From: Candidatus Micrarchaeota archaeon
GTDB lineage: Archaea; Micrarchaeota; Micrarchaeia; Norongarragalinales; Norongarragalinaceae
DNA: 64,000 nt
Assembly: GCA_016207165.1 (NCBI GenBank)
Contig: JACQQD010000005.1
Location: 98,736-162,735 of the forward strand
Direction of reading: 5' to 3'
The notes under the pieces: model-generated
The model's input: the letters and a program-made list of their open reading frames with translations, nothing else
The model's database searches: none
Told to the model about the DNA's origin: nothing
Position numbers and translations under genes: made by a program
Shown: positions 4,884 to 41,335 of the stretch, piece after piece
Position numbering within the stretch: position 1 is the first letter of the stretch
Layout of the letters: every line of letters begins with the position of its first letter

Positions 4884-5597
4884 ATGGCATCCCATGGATC
4901 AAGCCGACACGTCAAGCGCCTCAACGCCCCCAACGCCGCCGGCATTGCCCGCAAGTCCTCCAAATGGTTCAGGAAGCCGGACGCTGGCGCGCACAACGCC
5001 CGCGAGTCGCTGAGCCTGGGCACTTTATTGGTGGAACGCCTGCGCGTCTGCGAGAACCAACGCGAAGCCAAGAAGCTCTGCGGCGCAGGCCTGGTGCGGG
5101 TGGACGGCCGGCCCGTGAAAAAGCCTTCCTTTTCCGTCGGCCTCATGGACATCATCTCGATTCCCAAGCTTTCCCTGAACGTCGTCTTGGTTTTCAAGCA
5201 CGACGTTCTGCAACCCCTGCCCCTGGATTCAAAGCATGCGGCGACGAAGCTCTGCCGCGTCGTGGGCAAAACCAAGGTTTTGGGAGGCCAAGTCCAGTTG
5301 GGCTTGCATGACGGACGCACGCTTTTAGTCCCGCCAACCGACGCCAGCATCTCGCCCGGCGACACCCTCCAGGTCTCGGTTCCCAACCAGAAAATTCAAG
5401 GCGTGCTGAAACTGGTCAAAGGCGCCACGGCCTTGGTGGTCCGCGGACGCCACGCCGGACAAGTCGCCTCCGTGGAAGAACTCATGCCTCAAATGGGCAA
5501 AAAGAAACCCGAAGCCAAGCTGACGGCCAACGGCGAGTCCCTCATCACGCTGAAGGACTACGTGTTCGTGGTCCAACCCGGGTTCTCGGTGACCTAA
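4884..5597 (+). CDS. rps4e: 30S ribosomal protein eS4 (S4e)
   Basis: 237 aa, MASHGSSRHVKRLNAP...; archaea/eukaryote-specific. Confidence 0.9.
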   Translation: MASHGSSRHVKRLNAPNAAGIARKSSKWFRKPDAGAHNARESLSLGTLLVERLRVCENQREAKKLCGAGLVRVDGRPVKKPSFSVGLMDIISIPKLSLNVVLVFKHDVLQPLPLDSKHAATKLCRVVGKTKVLGGQVQLGLHDGRTLLVPPTDASISPGDTLQVSVPNQKIQGVLKLVKGATALVVRGRHAGQVASVEELMPQMGKKKPEAKLTANGESLITLKDYVFVVQPGFSVT

Positions 5598-5601
5598 ATT
5601 C

Positions 5602-6099
5602 ATGAAGCACGTCCACCTCGAAAAAGTCACGGTCAACATCGGCGTCGGCCAAGGCGGACAGGCCTTGGAGAACGCGCGCGAGCTGTTGACGCGCCTGACG
5701 CAGCGCAAGCCCGCCAACACCTTGTCCCGCACCCGCAACCCCACGTTCGGGCTGCGGAAAGGAGAGGCCATCGGCGCCAAGGTCACGCTGCGCGGAAAAC
5801 CCGCCGCCGAATTCATCAAAAAAGCATTGACGGCCCGGGAGCAGACCATCAAGGCCACCAGTTTTGACTCGACCGGCAACGTCTCGTTTGGCGTTCCCGA
5901 ATACATTGATTTTCCGGGCATGAAGTACGACCCGGCCATCGGCATTATCGGCTTTGACGTGTGCGTGACGCTCTCCAAGCCCGGTTTGCGCGTCAAGCAC
6001 CGCAAAATCGCTTCGCGAAAACTCCCCCGAAAACAGCGCGTGACCCGGGACGAAGCCATCGCCTTCATGAAAGACCAATTCTCGGTGAACTTCGCGTGA
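5602..6099 (+). CDS. rpl5: 50S ribosomal protein uL5 (L5)
   Basis: 165 aa, ...[11 protein letters not shown]...[19 protein letters not shown]... Confidence 0.93.
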
Positions 6100-6260: not shown

Positions 6261-6644
6261 ATGGATTTGCTGGCTAACGCATTGAACCAAATCAAGATTG
6301 CCGAACGAAAGGGACTGCGCACGGTACGCATCGAGCCCACCAACAAACTGGTGCGCGACGTTCTCAACGTGCTGAAAAGCGCGGGCTACATTGCCGACGC
6401 CGAGTTTAGCGACGACGCGCGCGGCGGCCGCTTCGTCGTCACGCTCAACGGCGCGATTAACGAATGCGGCGTCATCAAACCGCGTTTCCCCGTTGGGAAA
6501 AAGACGTGGGAAAAATTCGAGCAGCGCTTCTTGCCCTCCAAGGACATCGGTGTCCTCATCGTGACTACGCCCCAAGGCGTGGTCACGCACAACGCCGCCA
6601 AGGAGAAACTCGTGGGCGGACGCCTTTTGGCGTACGCGTTTTAG
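6261..6644 (+). CDS. rps8: 30S ribosomal protein uS8 (S8)
   Basis: 127 aa, ...LANALNQIKIAERKG... Confidence 0.93.
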   Translation: MDLLANALNQIKIAERKGLRTVRIEPTNKLVRDVLNVLKSAGYIADAEFSDDARGGRFVVTLNGAINECGVIKPRFPVGKKTWEKFEQRFLPSKDIGVLIVTTPQGVVTHNAAKEKLVGGRLLAYAF

Positions 6645-6653
6645 TGAATTCTT

Positions 6654-25348: not shown

Positions 25349-25497
25349 CCCGCTGTAGCTCAACCTGGCAGAGCACCTGACTGTAGGACTGCGGACCGTT
25401 TTTGTAGGTACGTTTTCCGGTTACAGCCTGCTCTGTCTTTAGAGACAGATTCCTGAAAGAAATCAGGGTGTTGCCAGTTCAAATCTGGCCAGCGGGA
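25349..25497 (+). tRNA. tRNA-Tyr(GUA) precursor with ~75-nt canonical 37/38 intron (25387-25461)
   Basis: acceptor CCCGCTG/CAGCGGG + A73; D-arm GCTC-AACCTGGCA-GAGC; anticodon stem CCTGA/TCAGG with loop CUGUAG|intron; variable GTGTT; T-arm GCCAG-TTCAAAT-CTGGC. Confidence 0.75.
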
Positions 25498-25507
25498 CTT
25501 TCTCTTT

Positions 25508-27189
25508 TTATGGACTTTTGGGTCCGAATTTTTGTATGGCTTTGGTTACGCCTTGTTCTACTGACGTCACCAAATCCTCTTTGGTCAAGTATTCCATGGC
25601 GGCCGAGTGCAAGATTTTGTTCTTGACCCGCGGGTTGGTCACCGCCAAGTACACGTCGCCGCCGGCTTTCTTGCGGCTTTCCACGATGCCATCCAAGATG
25701 GCAACCGCGGAAGAGTCCATGTAGTCCACGTCCAGCAAGTCCAACACCAATACCTTGCATGTTTCCCTCGGCGTTTCGTCCGAGATTCTTTCCAGCCGGT
25801 ACGCTGAACCAAAGAACAGGGGGCCGCTGACGCGGTAGGTGCGCGCGATGCCGGACACGTCCGGCGCCAGAGTCGAGATTGTGACGGCCGGTGCCGGCGC
25901 GGGTACCAACTTGATTTCCACGTTCTCGCTCATTTTCTTGATGAAGACCAGACCCGCCAACGTGAATCCGATGAGGATGGCGGTCGTCAATTCCAGAAAC
26001 ACGGTGGCCGTCACCGTGGCCAGAAAGACGAGTACGTCGCTTTTGCTGTCGGACAAAAAGTGCTTCAACGCGTCAAAGTCCATGAGGTGGACGGCTGTAA
26101 ACGTCAAGATGCCGGCCAGAACCGCCATGGGAATGAATTGGGCCAGCGGCGCTAACGCCAACAGCACCAATACCAAGAGCCCCGAATGCACTACCGCGGA
26201 GAGCCGCGTTTTGGCGCCGTTTTTAACGTTGGTTGCCGAACGCACGATGACGCCGGTGGCCGCAATGCCGCTGAAAAACGGCACCACGGCATTGGCCATT
26301 CCCTGTCCAACGAGCTCCTTGCTGGAGTTGTGTTTGGTGCCCGTCATGCCATCCAAGGACACGGCGGACACTAGGCTTTCGATGCTGGCAAGCAATGCGA
26401 TGGCCAATGCGGAAGGAAAAAGTTCGTTTAGTTGCGAGAGTGGAAAGTCAGGCACCGCAAAACCCGGGAGACTGGATGGAATGGTGCCGATGTGCGCCAC
26501 GTCCAAGAAAAAATCACGGAAACCCCGGTGGCGGTCACCAGCGCCACAAAGGAAGCGGGAATTTTGTGCGTGAGCCTTGGAATTCCCCAAAGCACGGCCA
26601 AGGTCGTCGCCGACAAAGCCAACGCCGCGAGACTGGCTTGGTTGAGGTGGGAAATCAGTGCAGCCATTTGCGCCAGGGCACCCTCGGCGCTCACAGCTAC
26701 TCCCGACAAGTTGCCCAGTTGTCCTAAAATGATCAGCAAGCCGATGCCGGTCGTGAATCCCACCACTACAGTGTATGGAATGAATTTCACCACCCGGCCG
26801 ATGCCGGAAATGCCCATGGCTATCTGCAGGATGCCTGCCAAAAACCCGGCCATCAACAGTCCTTGGACGCCGAACTTTGCCGCCACGCTATACAACAACA
26901 CGGTCATGGCCGCTGCCGGTCCCGCGACTCCCAATTCCGTGCCGCCGAACACGGCGACAATGGCTCCGCCAATGATGGCGGTGTAAAGACCGTACGCCGG
27001 CGGCACTCCGGAGGCCACGGCGAGAGCCAGACAAAGAGGAATCGCCACCACGGTCACAATGGTGCCAGCGATCACGTCGTGCTTCCAGTGGCGCAGCGAG
27101 AGTTTGGCGGGACGGAAGAGCCCCAGCAAGCCGGAAAGCAATTTCCGGCTGACATAAACGGCCATAGCGGGTCTTAACGGGAGGTGCAT
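25508..27189 (-). pseudogene. SulP-family sulfate/anion permease with C-terminal STAS domain, interrupted by a frameshift in an A6/T6 homopolymer near 26508-26513
   Basis: two overlapping ORFs (26428..27189 N-terminal TM part; 25508..26590 C-terminal TM + STAS ...VLVLDLLDVDYMDSSAVAILDGIVESRKKAGG...); adding one T restores ...GVSVIFFLDVAHIGTIPSSLPGF... Confidence 0.7.
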
Positions 27190-28544: not shown

Positions 28545-29651
28545 TCACGCCGTGACGCGCAGGGCTTGATTCAGCGTCTGGTCCACCAACCCGTCGGGAA
28601 GCCGTTCTTCCAGTTTCTCCAAGTGCCGCGCGTCGGTGCGCGTGGCCGGATGCCGGCTGACCAGGCTCTGGCAACAATCCAGATACGGCTGGCGCGACAA
28701 ATCGTATGTACCGATTTTTTCCGCGATGCCGATGATTTCCTTTTTGTCGTACGTCAACAACGGCCGAAGCATGGGTAATTTCACGGCATCCTGTATTGAC
28801 CCTAAGTTTGACAACGTCTGCGACGAGACTTGGGCGAGGTTTTCGCCGGTGGCAATGCCTTCCGCGTTTTCTTGGACCGCAATTTGTTGGGCCACGCGTG
28901 CCATGAACCGCCGGAAAACGGGGAGAGCGAATCGTTCCGGAACATCCAAGGCCGCCAAGGTGAACTCGTTGTACGGCACCAGGTAAACGGTGTTGGCCAG
29001 CGTCCACGGCTTGAGCTGGCGGGCGAGGTTGAGGATTTTGAGCGACTTTTCCTCCACGTTTTCACGGTGCGGGTGGAAGTGCACGTACACGTTCTTGATG
29101 CCGCGCTTGGCCATGAGCCACGCGGCCACCGGCGAGTCAAACCCACCGCTTAAAAGTGTGACCACCTTTCCGGAGACGCCCACCGGCAAACCCCCGAGTC
29201 CCGCGTGCTTTCCGCCGTACGCTACCGCCTTGTCTCTGAGCACGTCGACGTGTACCACGGCTTTGGGGTTTTTCACAGCCAACGCCACGCCCCGTTTTTC
29301 CAGGCGGCGCGTGAGTTGGCGCACGATTTCCGGGGACTGAAATTCAAACGACTTGTCGGAGCGGTTTACTTCCACTTTGACGGGGCCGCCCGCGCTTTCG
29401 GCCAGGCGCGCCACGGCGTCTTCCATGCCGGACAAACTCCGCTTTGCGTCGAGGCACTCGGCAAACCATGACACGCCAAAGACTTTCTCGATTTTCGGTA
29501 ACGCGGACGCGTCGGCATCCAGAAAGAACCGGTGTTCGACGAGTTTGGCTTTGACGTCCGTGGCGTTCTCCAGGTTGCGCTGCAGCTGCCGCTGGAACAC
29601 GGGCCTGTTTCGGCCCTTGGTGAACAGTTCTCCGTAGTGGACGACGATCAT
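28545..29651 (-). CDS. thiI: tRNA 4-thiouridine synthase ThiI (THUMP + PP-loop ATP pyrophosphatase)
   Basis: 368 aa; PP-loop ...VVTLLSGGFDSPVAAWLM...; N-terminal THUMP region. Confidence 0.85.
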   Translation of the reverse strand: MIVVHYGELFTKGRNRPVFQRQLQRNLENATDVKAKLVEHRFFLDADASALPKIEKVFGVSWFAECLDAKRSLSGMEDAVARLAESAGGPVKVEVNRSDKSFEFQSPEIVRQLTRRLEKRGVALAVKNPKAVVHVDVLRDKAVAYGGKHAGLGGLPVGVSGKVVTLLSGGFDSPVAAWLMAKRGIKNVYVHFHPHRENVEEKSLKILNLARQLKPWTLANTVYLVPYNEFTLAALDVPERFALPVFRRFMARVAQQIAVQENAEGIATGENLAQVSSQTLSNLGSIQDAVKLPMLRPLLTYDKKEIIGIAEKIGTYDLSRQPYLDCCQSLVSRHPATRTDARHLEKLEERLPDGLVDQTLNQALRVTA

Positions 29652-29743
29652 TTCTTCTCACCGGGTGTGAGGCGGACTAAGCGCCAGGGGGCGGAGCCCC
29701 CGGGGCTTAGGTGCAACAGTTCTCCGTAGTGGACAACGATCAT
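29623..29743. repeat. short hairpin insertion (29652-29714) flanked by a 29-bp direct duplication of the thiI start region (aacagttctccgtagtggacRacgatcat at 29623-29651 and 29715-29743)
   Basis: direct inspection; the inserted core gaggcggacTaagcgccagggggcggagcccccggggctt shares its ends with a second element at 39399-39476. Confidence 0.6.
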
Positions 29744-29800
29744 GAGGCCCCTTGTGGTCTGGAAAGGGTTTATAGGCTTTCATCGGCACCCAAAAATCCT

Positions 29801-30808
29801 ATGGCCATCGTGTTGGGGTTGACGGGAGAGAATTGTGCGGGTAAGGGGACCGTCGCCGAATACTTGGAACGAAAAGGATTCCACTATTACTCCTTGTCCG
29901 ACGTCATCCGCGAGGAACTCGCGGCGGAAGGCGCGGAGATCACGCGCGAGGCCCTCATTGAAAAAGGCAATCTGTTGCGGGAGACGCAGGGTTCCGACGT
30001 TCTGGCCCGCAAAACCATGGACAAGCTCTCCCACGAGAGGAACTTTGTCGTTGACTCGTTTCGCAACCCCCACGAAGTCAAGGCGTTCAAGAACAAAAAC
30101 AAGAACTTTTTCTTGTTGTACGTCACCGCTTTGCCGGAAGTACGCTTTGAGCGCATGAAGGCCCGCGGCCGCGAGTCGGACCCCAAGACGTTTGACGCGT
30201 TTGAGCGCATCGAAAAAAAAGAGCGGGAAAGCGCGTCGGAACAGCACCAAAGCATTTCCGCTTGCATCGGGCTTGCCGACCGCACCATTGAAAACAACGC
30301 CGACTTTTCGGCGTTGTACGACGCCGTGGACCGAACGCTCGCCGATCTTTCCAAGGAGTTTTCGGTGGACCGGCCATCTTGGGACGAGTACTTCATGGGC
30401 ATCGCAAAGATGGCGTCCACGAGGTCCAACTGCATCAAGCGCAAGGTGGCCGCGGTCATCGTCAAGGACAAGCGCATCATTTCCACGGGCTACAACGGCA
30501 CCCCCCGGGGAACGAGGAATTGCAACGAAGGGGGTTGTCCGCGCTGCAACAACTTCTCGCCGTCCGGCGCTTCCCTGGAGGAATGCTTGTGCTCGCACGC
30601 GGAGGAGAACGCCATCGTCCAAAGCTCGTACCACGGCGTGTCCATTGCCGGGTCCACGATTTACTCGACGTTTTCGCCTTGCCTATTGTGCGCGAAAATG
30701 ATCGTCAATGCGGGAATTCGGGAAGTCGTGTACGTAGCCGAATACAGCGTGTCGGATACCGCGAAAAAAATGTTGCAGGAAGCCGGCGTGCAGCTGAGGA
30801 AAGTCTAG
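29801..30808 (+). CDS. fusion of N-terminal P-loop nucleotide/nucleoside kinase domain and C-terminal dCMP/cytidine deaminase (zinc CDA fold)
   Basis: MAIVLGLTGENCAGKGTVAEYL Walker A at the N-terminus; deaminase motifs ...CIKRKVAAVIVKD...TGYNG...HAEENAI...YSTFSPCLLCAKMIVNAGI...; track ORF begins at GTG 29711 inside the duplicated repeat, ATG 29801 preferred. Confidence 0.7.
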   Translation: MAIVLGLTGENCAGKGTVAEYLERKGFHYYSLSDVIREELAAEGAEITREALIEKGNLLRETQGSDVLARKTMDKLSHERNFVVDSFRNPHEVKAFKNKNKNFFLLYVTALPEVRFERMKARGRESDPKTFDAFERIEKKERESASEQHQSISACIGLADRTIENNADFSALYDAVDRTLADLSKEFSVDRPSWDEYFMGIAKMASTRSNCIKRKVAAVIVKDKRIISTGYNGTPRGTRNCNEGGCPRCNNFSPSGASLEECLCSHAEENAIVQSSYHGVSIAGSTIYSTFSPCLLCAKMIVNAGIREVVYVAEYSVSDTAKKMLQEAGVQLRKV

Positions 30809-38183: not shown

Positions 38184-39398
38184 ATGGCTCAACGCGCAAT
38201 CCGTGAAATCGACGCCAAAAACATTTTGGTCCACGCCGGCGTGGCGAAATGGCACGGCGTCTTGGTGGACGGGCAAACGGACTGGAAGACGCTTTCCAAA
38301 GACCACCCGTGGCTGTTGAAGGAAAAGCTGGTGGTCAAGCCCGACCAATGCTTTGGCCAACGAGGCAAGCACGGCTTGGTTTTGTTGAACGCCGATTTGA
38401 AGGGCGTCGAGCAATTCGTGCGGAAAAACATGAACCGGGTCGTTGAATTAAACGGCGTGAAAGGCCCCTTGACGCACTTCTTGATCGAGCCGTTTGTCCC
38501 GCATCAAGCCGAGTACTACGCCGCCATCCAGACCGAGAAAGACCACGACGTGGTTTTTTTCTCCTTGAAAGGCGGCGTGGACGTGGAGGAAAACTGGGAC
38601 CGCATCCAACCATTCAAAGTCGGAGTCCTTGACGACTTGGATTCGGTGTCCTTTGGCTTGCCCAAGATGCCGGAGCGCGACGCGGTCCACGCGTTTCTCA
38701 AGAAACTCTACCGCGTCTTTGCCGAGAACGACTTTTCGTTTTTGGAGTTGAACCCTTTTTGCATGGTGGACGGAAAGCCGGTGCTGCTGGATGCCGTGGC
38801 GCGGCTGGACGACACGGCGGCCTTCAAAGGCAAGTGGAACGTCGAGTTCCCGGCGCCTTTTGGCCGGACGTTGTCCAAGGAGGAAGCCTACATCAAGTCG
38901 TTGGACGAGAAAACCGGTGCGTCATTGAAGCTGACCGTCTTGAACCCGAAGGGAAAAATCTGGACGCTGGTCGCCGGCGGCGGAGCGTCCGTGGTGTACG
39001 CCGACACCATCGTCGACTTGGGCTTCCAAAAAGAGCTGGCCAACTACGGAGAGTATTCCGGCAATCCCAACGACGAAGAAACCTACCTTTACACCAAAAC
39101 CGTGCTGGAATTGTTGGTCAAAGGAAACGGGCAGATTCTTTTGATTGGCGGCGGCATCGCCAACTTCACCGACGTGGCCAAGACCTTCAAAGGCATCATC
39201 CAGGCGCTGAGCGAATTTGCGCCGGCGCTCAAGAAAAAAGGCGTGAAAATATACGTTCGCCGCGGGGGTCCCAACTACCAGCAAGGCTTGGAACACATGC
39301 GGCAACTGGGCGAGAAAACGGGTTTGTCCATCCAAGTCTTTGGCCCGGAAACGCATATGACGAAGATCGTTCCCATGGCGCTTGAGGAGCTGAAATGA
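38184..39398 (+). CDS. aclB: ATP-citrate lyase small subunit AclB-like (ATP-grasp, succinyl-CoA synthetase beta-like)
   Basis: 404 aa; ...EIDAKNIL...VVKPDQCFGQRGKHGLV...; CoA-ligase fold; immediately upstream of aclA-like gene. Confidence 0.75.
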   Translation: MAQRAIREIDAKNILVHAGVAKWHGVLVDGQTDWKTLSKDHPWLLKEKLVVKPDQCFGQRGKHGLVLLNADLKGVEQFVRKNMNRVVELNGVKGPLTHFLIEPFVPHQAEYYAAIQTEKDHDVVFFSLKGGVDVEENWDRIQPFKVGVLDDLDSVSFGLPKMPERDAVHAFLKKLYRVFAENDFSFLELNPFCMVDGKPVLLDAVARLDDTAAFKGKWNVEFPAPFGRTLSKEEAYIKSLDEKTGASLKLTVLNPKGKIWTLVAGGGASVVYADTIVDLGFQKELANYGEYSGNPNDEETYLYTKTVLELLVKGNGQILLIGGGIANFTDVAKTFKGIIQALSEFAPALKKKGVKIYVRRGGPNYQQGLEHMRQLGEKTGLSIQVFGPETHMTKIVPMALEELK

Positions 39399-39521
39399 AT
39401 GCGTTTACATGAGTTTAGGGAAAGGGGCGAGGCGGAGCAAGCGCCAGGGGAAAACCGTAGGTTTGCCCCGGGGCTTGCATGCACGAAGATCGTTCCCATG
39501 GCGCTTGAGGAGCTGAAGTGA
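39352..39521. repeat. second copy of the hairpin insertion (39399-39476) flanked by a ~40-45-bp direct duplication of the aclB 3' end/aclA start region (gcatRtgacgaagatcgttcccatggcgcttgaggagctgaaRtga)
   Basis: direct inspection: 39352-39397 and 39475-39521 nearly identical; core ...gaggcggagCaagcgccagggg-aaaaccgtaggtttg-ccccggggcttgcatgc. Confidence 0.6.
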
Positions 39522-41335
39522 AAAAGTTTATGACTCTTTTCGACGAAAACACGCAGGCCATCATCTTCGGCATGCAAGCCCAAGTCGTCCAACGCATGCT
39601 GGATTTCGACTTCATGTGCGGCCGGAAAACCCCGTCGGTGGCCGCCGTGGTCAACCCTTCGGACACTCGGATGCTGGCCGTCTTTTTCGGTTCCAAGCAA
39701 GTCTTGGTTCCTGTGTACGCGTCCACGAAAGAAGCCTTTCAAAAACATCCCGTTGCCTCGGTGTTCATCAACTTTGCTTCGTTCCGCTCCGCGTTTGACA
39801 CCACGTGGGATGCCTTGGATTTGCCGCAAGTTTTGTCCGTGGCCGTGATTGCCGAAGGCATGCCTGAGCGCGACACCCGGAGGCTTGCGGCGAAAGCCAA
39901 AAAACTTTCCAAGCCCTTCATCGGCCCGGCCACCGTCGGCGGCCTGACGGCGGGTTGCTTCAAGATTGGCAACACCGGCGGTGCCGTGGACGCCATGATC
40001 GACGCGAAACTCTACCGCTCCGGCTCCGTGGGATTCGTTTCCAAGTCCGGCGGCATGTCCAACGAATTGTTCAACCTGCTTTCCCACCACACCGACGGCG
40101 TCTGCGAAGGCATCGCCATCGGCGGCGACCGCTTCCCCGGCACCACGCTTTACGACCACGTGCAACGGTTCGAGAAGGATCCCAAAATCAAGCTCATCGT
40201 CGTCTTGGGTGAATTGGGGGGAACCGACGAGTACGACATCGCCGACGCGGTGGCGAAAAAGAAGATCAAAAAGCCGGTGGTGGCCTGGGTCACCGGCACC
40301 TGCGCGGCGCTTTTTGCCACCGAAGTCCAATTCGGCCATGCGGGCGCCAAGAGCGGTTCCAAGAAGGAAAGTGCGCAAGAAAAAAACGAGGCCCTAAAAA
40401 AAGCGGGGGTCTTCGTTCCGAAAAGCTACGACGACTTCGGTGAACTCATCCAAAAAGTATTCGAGAAGCACGTGGGAAAAATTCCCGCGGAAACGCAAAA
40501 CCCCCCCGTCATTCCGGAAGACTTTTCCGTGGCGGTAAAGAAAAACCGAGTCCGCCGGCCCGCCTCCATCGTGTCCAGCATCTCGGATGACCGCGGCGAA
40601 GACGTGCTGTACCACGGCGAGACCCTGACTTCCCTTCTGGAAAGAAAAGCCAGCCTGGGGGACGTCATCGCTTTGTTGTGGTTCAAAAAGAAGCTTCCCG
40701 CCTGGGCCACTGAGTTTATGGAAATGACGCTCAAAATCACGGCCGACCACGGGCCCGCTGTTTCCGGGGCGCACAACGCCATCGTCGCCTCGCGCGCCGG
40801 CAAGGACTTGGTTTCGTGCCTGGCTTCGGGTTTGTTGACCATCGGCCCCCGTTTTGGAGGCGCCATTGACGATGCGGCCCGCTACTGGCAAGCGGCCGTC
40901 TCTCAAGGACAGGCGCCCAAGGCGTTCGTGGATGAAATGAAAGCCAAGAACGTCTTGATTCCCGGCATTGGCCACCGCGTCAAATCCATCCAAAACCCCG
41001 ACGCCCGCGTGGCCGCGCTCAAGGCCTACGCCCAAAAGCATTTCCCGTCCACCCAGCACCTGCAATTCGCCTTGGACGTCGAGAAACTGACCACCCAGAA
41101 GAAAGGCAACCTGATTCTCAACGTGGACGGCTGCATTGCCGCCTTGTTTCTGGACCTTTTCGATTCCTGCCCCGAGTTTTCCGGCGAGGAAAAAAGACAG
41201 CTGGTGGACATTGGGGTCCTGAATGCCTTTTTTGCTTTGGGGCGAAGCATTGGCATGATTGGGCACGCCATCGACCAAAAACGCCTGCAACAGCCCTTGT
41301 ACCGGCACGACTGGGACGACGTGCTGTACCTCTAA
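39518..41335 (+). CDS. aclA: ATP-citrate lyase large subunit AclA-like (succinyl-CoA synthetase alpha-like CoA-binding + citrate-synthase-like domain)
   Basis: 605 aa; ...SKSGGMSNELFNLLS...VQFGHAGAK... (phospho-His loop); C-terminal ...IPGIGHRVKS... citrate synthase-like; start GTG 39518 or ATG 39530. Confidence 0.8.
   Translation: MKKFMTLFDENTQAIIFGMQAQVVQRMLDFDFMCGRKTPSVAAVVNPSDTRMLAVFFGSKQVLVPVYASTKEAFQKHPVASVFINFASFRSAFDTTWDALDLPQVLSVAVIAEGMPERDTRRLAAKAKKLSKPFIGPATVGGLTAGCFKIGNTGGAVDAMIDAKLYRSGSVGFVSKSGGMSNELFNLLSHHTDGVCEGIAIGGDRFPGTTLYDHVQRFEKDPKIKLIVVLGELGGTDEYDIADAVAKKKIKKPVVAWVTGTCAALFATEVQFGHAGAKSGSKKESAQEKNEALKKAGVFVPKSYDDFGELIQKVFEKHVGKIPAETQNPPVIPEDFSVAVKKNRVRRPASIVSSISDDRGEDVLYHGETLTSLLERKASLGDVIALLWFKKKLPAWATEFMEMTLKITADHGPAVSGAHNAIVASRAGKDLVSCLASGLLTIGPRFGGAIDDAARYWQAAVSQGQAPKAFVDEMKAKNVLIPGIGHRVKSIQNPDARVAALKAYAQKHFPSTQHLQFALDVEKLTTQKKGNLILNVDGCIAALFLDLFDSCPEFSGEEKRQLVDIGVLNAFFALGRSIGMIGHAIDQKRLQQPLYRHDWDDVLYL

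Follow-up and report, generated by a model that had tools for sequence, protein, structure and literature searches.

The DNA analysed here is a window of 64,000 nucleotides (nt) from a Candidatus Micrarchaeota archaeon (contig JACQQD010000005.1). It carries thiI, which encodes a tRNA 4-thiouridine synthase of 368 amino acids (aa) (28545–29651, minus strand; a 100% match to a Candidatus Micrarchaeota archaeon ThiI at NCBI), beside a divergent gene for a nucleoside kinase/dCMP-deaminase fusion of 335 aa (29801–30808, plus strand). We describe a small hairpin element that lies in the start region of thiI (copy A), a second copy between two ATP-citrate-lyase-like genes, aclB and aclA, of the same window (copy B), and their relatives in other Micrarchaeota. 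Positions are those of the window unless they follow an L number, which denotes a locus fetched from another assembly.

The thiI and aclB/aclA inserts

The initial annotation of this DNA had noticed that 29 bp spanning the start codon of thiI occur twice, with one mismatch, on either side of a 63-bp hairpin insert, and both the coordinates and the sequence were borne out. The direct repeat (AACAGTTCTCCGTAGTGGAC[G/A]ACGATCAT; 29623–29651 and 29715–29743, its copies spaced 92 nt) encloses an insert at 29652–29714 that contains CTAAGCGCCAGGGGGCGGAGCCCCCGGGGCTTAG. The downstream repeat copy (29623–29651, minus strand) consists of the genuine thiI codons 1–9 plus 2 nt, and the upstream, promoter-proximal copy (29715–29743, minus strand) is the source of a second ATG. 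At the one position where they differ, the downstream copy agrees with L001, a relative with 86% identity in ThiI, and the upstream copy has the derived base, a synonymous change from GTC to GTT. Read on the plus strand, the insert is made up of a variable 5′ segment (29652–29660), a core with the hairpin, and the 4-nt tail GTGC. The core (29661–29710, plus strand), a member of what we call family 1, consists of the G-rich 5′ tail GGGTGTGAGGCGGA and an interrupted 13-bp stem-loop (29677–29710), and it stands antisense to thiI. Folded as a whole, the insert gives −33.9 kcal/mol on the plus strand (z −2.65; 2 of 200 shuffles as strong) and −30.9 kcal/mol on the minus strand (z −3.41; 0 of 200).

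Copy B is an 84-bp insert (39399–39482, plus strand) with its family-1 core in sense at 39421–39478, flanked by a 39-bp duplication that extends, with mismatches, up to ~52 bp. The upstream repeat (39360–39398, plus strand) is the working 3′ end of aclB, stop codon included, and the downstream repeat (39483–39521, plus strand) retains the end that aclB had ancestrally, GAGGAG and TGA included, and lies immediately before the aclA ATG at 39530. An open reading frame (ORF) of 40 codons (39399–39521, plus strand) runs through the copy, beginning as TGAATG directly after the aclB stop and stopping at the ancestral TGA. The initial annotation had likened copy A to a sequence at 39399–39476, and the two do align: they share the core GAGGCGGA-NN-AAGCGCCAGGGG-loop-CCCCGGGGCTT-NN, and the base of the stem is altered on both sides in a compensatory manner (CT/AG in copy A versus GC/GC in copy B). 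The aclB/aclA junction is insert-free in relative L050 (...AAGTGATTCGCATGACG), and likewise in L051 and L059. Judging by L050, aclA probably starts at ATG 39530 (MTLF...), GTG 39518 being a mechanical ORF start.

Copy A is a real insertion and not a product of chance or of assembly. The repeats of copies A and B are the most nearly identical short-range direct repeats of the window (97% and 92%), the remaining pairs reaching at most 89% when a 102-nt tandem repeat is set aside. A separate Logan assembly (L002; SRR12113385) has the thiI arrangement identical base for base. Both sites are empty in the closest relative (ERR14788029; 86% identity in ThiI and AclB); at the thiI start L001 has a single ATGATCGTCGTTCAC... 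copy of the start region and no insert. These empty sites, together with one more copy in the window and ~12 distinct copies in other Micrarchaeota genomes and metagenomes, support the view of the initial annotation that this is a mobile insertion.

The thiI gene starts at ATG 29651, because all Micrarchaeota homologues share the N-terminus M-I/L-x-x-HYGE(L/I)FTKG. The second ATG opens a 31-codon upstream ORF (uORF; 29648–29743, minus strand; product MIVVHYGELLHLSPGGSAPWRLVRLTPGEKK*) that passes through the antisense element and whose TGA overlaps the thiI ATG at 29651 as ATGA (AAATGATC), just as the initial annotation had read it. The sequence GGUGA (29662–29658) lies 6 nt upstream of the thiI AUG, and its complement stands at the 3′ end of the 16S rRNA in a related Micrarchaeon (...GATCACCTCCA); GGUGA is a putative Shine-Dalgarno-like ribosome-binding site, which a small hairpin predicted from the minus-strand fold of the thiI mRNA (CUCAC-ACCCG-GUGAG; 29657–29671) would sequester. 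Upstream of the second ATG we read a palindromic TATA box (TTTATAGG/CCTATAAA; 29769–29776) that is common to thiI and the divergent kinase/dCMP-deaminase gene, standing 25 nt before ATG 29743 on the minus strand and 26 nt before ATG 29801 on the plus strand; in L001 a TATAAA stands 23 nt before the thiI ATG. From known archaeal TATA-to-start spacing we infer that this box acts as a promoter and that the mRNAs are leaderless or near-leaderless in both directions. The initial annotation had remarked that the ORF caller starts the kinase-deaminase gene at a GTG. The caller does begin there (GTG 29711), but this is a mechanical ORF start, and the real start is most likely ATG 29801, because this gives 335 aa, the length at which the homologues in L001, L002 and L053 are called.

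A hairpin family in Micrarchaeota

The conserved family-1 module is ~45–50 nt long. Its 5′ tail (GGGGGCGAGGCGGA) is G-rich and single-stranded; the 13-pair stem that comes next (6 + 2 + 5 bp) is broken by a 1x1 mismatch and by a bulged A, and its loop varies in length. A structural alignment of ten distinct copies (A3), from which we built the covariance model R1, has 93.8% of its cells paired, versus 30–65% when the partners are slid by 1–3 columns. Two outer stem pairs covary (CG4/AU2/GC2/GU1 and UA8/CG2), and the observed covariation score was reached by 0 of 500 shuffles; the stem is conserved by structure. In the 64-kb window R1 finds copies A and B alone, at 64 bits each (64.4 bits, E 2.7e-12, for the copy A core; 64.7 bits for copy B), with the next best match at 11.8. 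Above 30 bits the model has 13 matches in the fetched loci, corresponding to ~12 distinct copies, and none in the loci of the closest relative. The 3′ boundary of the element is sharp in most copies (the hairpin plus 0–4 nt), and the 5′ side varies in length and sequence. Comparison of the insert ends of copies A, B, L026, L039 and L053 found terminal inverted repeats in no copy.

The exact hairpin pattern, searched in one genome per species (185,579 species), occurs at four loci, all of them in Micrarchaeota/Anstonellales, and a pattern scan of metagenomes (35 matches) added approximately nine true loci. About two-thirds of those 35 matches were discarded as unrelated conserved eukaryote-like coding sequence; at ~24 loci (L007–L041) the pattern GAGGCGGANNAAGCGCCAGGGG also matches such coding sequence (...CCCAGAGGCGGAAGAAGCGCCAGGGGATGAG...), which has no relation to the element. 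The core recurs in independent assemblies from NCBI, ENA, JGI and Logan. In viral contigs, two scans with patterns turned up either no match or chance ones within coding sequence of phages, and we rejected a viral origin. With Rfam 15, two tRNAs are the only features of the window to pass the gathering threshold, none of them on the element, and a permissive search on the element gave at best 13.5 and 21.7 bits, where the thresholds are 64 and 58.6. Nor is the element described in the full-text literature that we searched. Copy A is one copy of a small non-coding hairpin insertion family that has so far been seen only in Micrarchaeota.

Element-bearing genomes also contain other repeats. The loops of the family-1 hairpins at L005 2698–2840 and L039 1533–1625 hold further palindromic inserts of ~100 and ~50 nt, and the nested insert of L005 resembles a palindrome beside a tRNA-Gly gene (L005 400–460). 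Between genes, L003 has a 107-nt unit repeated 155 nt apart (5403–5664) and L035 a perfect 51-nt tandem duplication (6551–6652).

The core is found in three settings, namely gene ends with target duplications of 19–52 bp, introns of tRNA genes, and intergenic DNA. Among the duplicated targets, copy A has 29 nt (up to ~33 nt) of the thiI start and copy B 39–52 nt that span the aclB end and the intergenic sequence immediately before the aclA start. L026 duplicates ~37 nt with the C-terminal codons and stop of a gene, L005b a perfect 19 nt with the final four codons and stop of a gene, and L039 37–57 nt, and L053 and L063 duplicate 46 and 44 nt, respectively, of the thiI start. Repeats of such length are otherwise rare in the element-bearing loci examined. 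Copies with no detectable duplication lie directly after the discriminator base of a tRNA-Glu gene (L012), 4 nt from a stop codon (L003), in tandem as a pair (L004), and between a TATA-like box and a kaiC-like gene (L035). The orientation of copies to transcription is mixed, which speaks against the family as a whole having a strand-specific function as RNA. At L012 (1041–1190) the adjoining tRNA-Glu(TTC) gene is complete, and on the far side of the element the 3′ end of the tRNA recurs in inverted form, matching at 10/11 nt (GTCGGAGCATA ... TATGCTCGAC).

Three copies make up most of a tRNA intron, and these are the only copies with the bulge-helix-bulge (BHB) motif of archaeal introns. The element is in sense in the 96-nt intron of tRNA-Lys(TTT) at 59/60 (L006; H = TTCA/TGAG, h 5, h' 4), and antisense in the 81-nt introns of tRNA-Asp(GTC) at 59/60 (L032; H = TTCG/CGAA, hBH type) and of tRNA-Gly(TCC) at 37/38 (L005; H = CTTC/GGAG). 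Our scan for BHB motifs ranks both true introns of the L006 control tRNA first (h 5, h' 3–4), and ARAGORN finds all three tRNAs canonical once spliced in silico. The 5′ splice site of the two antisense copies lies one nucleotide from the sharp end of the element, and tRNA-Asp is intronless in the window, L001 and L051. This coincidence of intron boundary and element end, together with the intron-free orthologues, suggests that the element may have created the tRNA introns. The epsilon2 splicing endonuclease of Micrarchaeum cuts relaxed motifs, including hBH introns at 59/60 (PMC3239211). We also looked for decayed duplications inside the three introns; none is significant (p 0.13–0.99), and we therefore make no claim of duplication remnants there. 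The window itself has a tRNA gene with a ~78-nt intron (25349–25497, plus strand; GTA anticodon, Tyr-like), which Rfam finds and ARAGORN does not; this intron contains a different small hairpin that does not belong to family 1. Together with the protein matches, this intron-bearing gene assigns the window to the Micrarchaeota, tiny archaea of the DPANN group.

The thiI start is filled in other lineages as well. L053–L057, five contigs of one species whose ThiI is 55% identical to that of the window, have a 46-nt duplication (−13 to +33), and the family-1 element that it encloses is 55 nt long, diverged (35.5 bits) and antisense, as in the window; L063, with 84% ThiI identity to L053, has the orthologous arrangement with a 44-nt duplication and a longer loop. 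In each of the three filled lineages the upstream repeat has the same end point (...TTYACC, +33). The upstream ORF is open in each of them (31 codons in the window, 34 in L053 and 38 in L063) and always ends in ATGA, and the ATG-to-ATG spacings of 92, 101 and 113 nt are each 2 mod 3. That frame and openness are kept despite inserts of different length supports a translational coupling of uORF and thiI, which the initial annotation had proposed: its geometry is present, L053 and L063 lend it comparative support, and the use of the uORF is a prediction. The L053 and L063 elements, whose flanks are ~90% identical, have conserved the 5′-tail block and the inner stem. They differ in both sides of the outer stem and by a loop indel of 12 nt that preserves the frame. 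The first 33 nt of thiI are identical in the two (L053 10001–10033, L063 1501–1533), third codon positions included, and the next 27 nt have 5 differences.

Near relatives of both filled lineages have empty thiI sites (L001; L058, 76%), as do L061 and L062. The two repeats of a filled genome match each other almost completely (28/29, 30/33 and 33/33), and four lineage-specific substitutions are common to both copies within each genome. The thiI site is either a hot spot that has been invaded repeatedly or the seat of an old insertion that has been homogenised by gene conversion and lost through recombination between the repeats. Filled alleles share GAACTGTTYACC and empty alleles differ there, which hints at target specificity. 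At L058 (10001–10093), where there is no hairpin, a 93-nt A-rich leader stands in frame with thiI and gives the called protein an N-terminal extension of 30 aa; this leader may represent a remnant in decay or an insertion of unrelated origin.

The aclB/aclA junction of L052 is occupied by a different hairpin insert (family 2), whose reverse complement reads GGAGGAGGCC...AAAACTGGGGGGAACCTTGGTTCCCCGCGGTTCC. It has a 23-nt duplication of the aclA start and a 34-codon ORF ending in TGA-A-ATG. Family 2 (L052 11225–11353, L001 13367–13475 and L005 2464–2624), with the core GGGG(G)AACC..GGTTCCCC and a purine-rich GGAGG tail, also adjoins tRNA-Pro genes in L001 and L005, with 20–22 nt of the tRNA ends duplicated. 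As this second family is likewise flanked by long duplications, hairpin inserts with long duplications are recurrent in the Micrarchaeota genomes examined.

Expression and origin of the inserts

The account that we think probable as a whole is that copy A is a hairpin insertion element that duplicated the thiI start on arrival, is tolerated through coupled expression, and may have been copied in from its 3′ end. Comparison with other lineages shows that the element landed antisense in the first codons of thiI, leaving the first 29 nt (to ~33 nt) duplicated on either side. Transcription of thiI would begin from the TATA box ~25 nt upstream, and because the resulting mRNA would have little or no leader, the promoter-proximal duplicate would carry its first AUG. 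Ribosomes would translate the 31-codon ORF through the hairpin, terminate at the UGA that overlaps the thiI AUG (AUGA) and re-initiate there, probably aided by GGUGA, which translation of the uORF would free from the small hairpin. The long duplication would thus be what makes the insertion harmless. At copy B, similarly, the upstream repeat would keep the aclB stop and the downstream repeat the ribosome-binding site and start of aclA, with the 40-codon ORF bridging the two. In archaea, ATGA overlaps have been demonstrated to couple translation by termination-reinitiation (PMC6728339), a process for which stop and start must overlap or lie very close together (PMC10666635). Overlaps or distances of this kind are present as ATGA in the window, L053 and L063 and as TGA-A-ATG in L052, and the coupling itself is predicted.

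As to how the element arrived, the absence of inverted termini, the sharp 3′ end, the variable 5′ side and duplications of 19 to ~52 nt led us to propose, with low confidence, that it is copied in from its own 3′ end by target-primed or template-switching synthesis that returns behind its point of departure. This pattern fits cut-and-paste by a DDE transposase or a fixed-ruler integrase poorly. To the left of the upstream repeat, the flanking sequence tends to look like the end of the 3′ arm (summed p ~0.008 over five loci), with an 8-nt identity, stop codon included, at L005b. That the elements represent an undescribed kind of archaeal mobile DNA, which moves by target-primed or template-switching synthesis, leaves 20–50-nt duplications, returns to preferred sites (the thiI start and the aclB/aclA junction, for example), and gives rise to new BHB introns when it enters tRNA genes, is a tentative proposal that we regard as possible and no more.

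Several observations weigh against this account of insertion and coupled expression. Copy number is low, with 2 copies per 64 kb in the window and 0 in ~24 kb of the closest relative, and the copies of L003, L004 and L035 belong to those where flanking duplications were not detected. Of the 65 window ORFs the 30 largest were examined, and none has a transposase, integrase, reverse transcriptase or Cas1 domain; the window contains housekeeping genes (SecY, Cbf5, RNA polymerase, EF-2 and EF-1alpha). The microhomology signal, from five loci, is weak, and the use of the uORF and the leaderless start are judged from spacing. A picture of recent, random insertion is also incomplete, because the thiI site is filled at the same position in lineages with only 55% ThiI identity while the repeats within each genome are nearly identical.

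Of the other explanations, a conserved regulatory leader is the least unlikely. According to it, the uORF and hairpin of thiI would be an old cis-acting attenuator or protein-binding RNA that some lineages have lost. The same position (+33) and orientation in three lineages, the preserved upstream ORF, the two-sided change of the outer stem in the orthologous copies of L053 and L063, and the identity of the first 33 nt of thiI in these two, even at third positions, all speak for such a leader. However, the core also occurs at unrelated places and in both orientations (the acl junction, 3′ ends of genes, tRNA introns and intergenic DNA), near relatives of both filled lineages (L001 and L058) have empty sites, and the four lineage-specific substitutions shared by both repeats argue against a single old duplication without gene conversion. 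We consider such a leader unlikely as an origin; a regulatory role as a secondary domestication of the thiI insertion is possible and compatible with the insertion account. The presence of the element within genuine BHB introns of tRNA-Lys, tRNA-Asp and tRNA-Gly raises another explanation, in which the insert plus one repeat is a BHB intron in the thiI (and acl) mRNA that the tRNA splicing endonuclease removes, restoring the ancestral mRNA. The relaxed motifs tolerated by the Micrarchaeum epsilon2 endonuclease (PMC3239211) are in its favor, and the palindrome GATC in ATGATC offers a weak in-register candidate in copy A and L053 (H 4 bp, h 2, h' 2–3). Yet across the mRNA strands of copies A and B, L053 and L052 the best in-register motifs of our BHB scan have h 2 and h' 2–3, which is background level, and neither the kept frame nor the openness of the uORFs would be needed if the segment were spliced out. 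Splicing from mRNA is therefore, in our judgment, very unlikely.

Also very unlikely is a classical MITE (a miniature transposable element with inverted repeats) moved by a DDE transposase with long, variable target duplications. Such duplications are the hallmark of IS1634 and IS1549 (references in PMC2266710), the IS1634 family is reported to be diverse in archaea (PMC2266710), and in L052 the family-2 insert has an rve-family integrase gene ~8 kb away. On the other hand, most members of the IS1634 family duplicate only 5–6 bp (PMC2266710), terminal inverted repeats are absent from all copies, the boundary is sharp on the 3′ side only and variable on the 5′ side, and the 30 largest window ORFs include no transposase. 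A local tandem duplication or assembly artefact unrelated to a dispersed element might have been suspected, since the window has just two copies and metagenome-assembled genomes can hold misjoins, but this is refuted: a second assembler gives the exact arrangement, the core is present in many independent assemblies, and the inserts are homologous while their flanking repeats differ from locus to locus. We also rejected a CRISPR-like mini-array or off-target integration by Cas1, for which the 'spacers' are mutually homologous and 55–140 nt long and the repeat length is not fixed, and a diversity-generating retroelement, given that the same 30 ORFs include no reverse transcriptase and that the repeats (29–39 nt, a single transition each) are too short for such elements, whose repeats measure ~100 nt or more and differ at template adenines.

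If the tentative proposal of an undescribed kind of mobile DNA is true, Micrarchaeota would still be gaining tRNA introns, and upstream ORFs in their mRNAs, directly from these elements. A single recognisable sequence forms the bulk of three tRNA introns and is elsewhere an obvious DNA insertion, with target duplications and empty sites. Because the same sequence occurs in both settings and the orthologous tRNA-Asp is intronless, intron gain by insertion of a mobile element becomes directly testable, and family 1 offers a lead to the origin of non-canonical archaeal tRNA introns. The insertion account would also explain how a compact genome tolerates an insertion, as the duplication spares both gene ends and selection would keep an ORF that stops on the real start. 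For annotation, gene callers mis-start beside the inserts, as at GTG 29711, at GTG 39518 and in the 372-aa ThiI call of a relative.

Other window features and known hairpin repeats

Elsewhere in the window, a sulfate permease (SulP + STAS) is present as two ORFs (25508–26590 and 26428–27189, minus strand) that overlap by ~160 nt in different frames; the split may reflect a frameshift, a pseudogene or an error of sequencing. The 102-nt repeat set aside above consists of two tandem units (49899–50102), 73% identical, inside a 745-aa ORF (49761–51998) that has no Pfam match.

Insertion of SINEs and LINEs by target priming and template switching at microhomologies are known for a sharp 3′ end, a variable 5′ end, variable duplications and homology at the 3′ junction. 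Family 1 has this pattern of ends, variable duplications and partial homology at the 3′ junction, and the likeness is one of pattern alone; unlike SINEs and LINEs, it shows no reverse transcriptase or poly-A-like tail. Mycobacterial interspersed repetitive units (MIRUs), reportedly described by Supply et al. in 1997, are said to be intergenic units of operons whose small ORFs overlap the flanking stop and start codons, and the small ORFs of our inserts have the same translational-coupling geometry; MIRUs differ in being tandem repeats without hairpin cores and without duplicated flanking gene ends.

REP/BIME, ERIC, Correia and Rickettsia palindromic elements are small hairpin repeats of bacteria. 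Like them (for an overview, see PMC3184786), family 1 consists of short, GC-rich, non-coding stem-loops at gene boundaries; it shares with REP a conserved single-stranded motif 5′ of the hairpin and with the Rickettsia elements the property that ORFs can read through it. A hairpin with a conserved 5′ tail is present, as in REP/RAYT systems; target duplications, which REP elements lack, are present too, and there is no HUH/RAYT domain among the 30 largest window ORFs. Unlike REP, family 1 is archaeal (DPANN), has a low copy number and target duplications of 19–52 bp, and is also found within tRNA introns. An archaeal example of a MITE is the MITE-like C/D-box sRNA element of Pyrobaculum calidifontis (PMC6009581). 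Family 1 is like MITEs in being small, non-autonomous, multi-copy and insertion-like with target duplications, and its copies are dispersed, non-coding and matched by empty sites; unlike them, it has no terminal inverted repeats, no short fixed duplication but a long variable one, a variable 5′ end and no C/D boxes. With IS1634 and IS1549 (cited in PMC2266710) it shares target duplications of unusual and variable length; these insertion sequences are 1.5–2 kb long with inverted ends and a DDE transposase, whereas family 1 is a 50-nt hairpin with neither, in inserts of 63–84 bp that have no ORF of their own.

A parallel for the intron copies is the 'transposition' of tRNA introns in Thermoproteales and the disrupted tRNA genes of ARMAN-2 (Fujishima et al. 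via PMC3239211; review in PMC4090602), where related sequences occur in introns of different tRNAs at 37/38 and 59/60. As in ARMAN-2, the host lineage has a splicing endonuclease of broad specificity (PMC3239211). The literature on tRNA intron transposition that we searched does not describe the family-1 element, which, unlike the introns reported there, also occurs outside tRNAs with clear target duplications, indicating insertion at the DNA level, and in both orientations within introns. In general terms family 1 is one of the small non-autonomous hairpin repeats, and it differs from every described family with which we compared it in its restriction so far to Micrarchaeota, its lack of inverted ends, its long and variable duplications, its recurrence at the same gene starts, where selection would keep the upstream ORFs, and its presence in tRNA introns.

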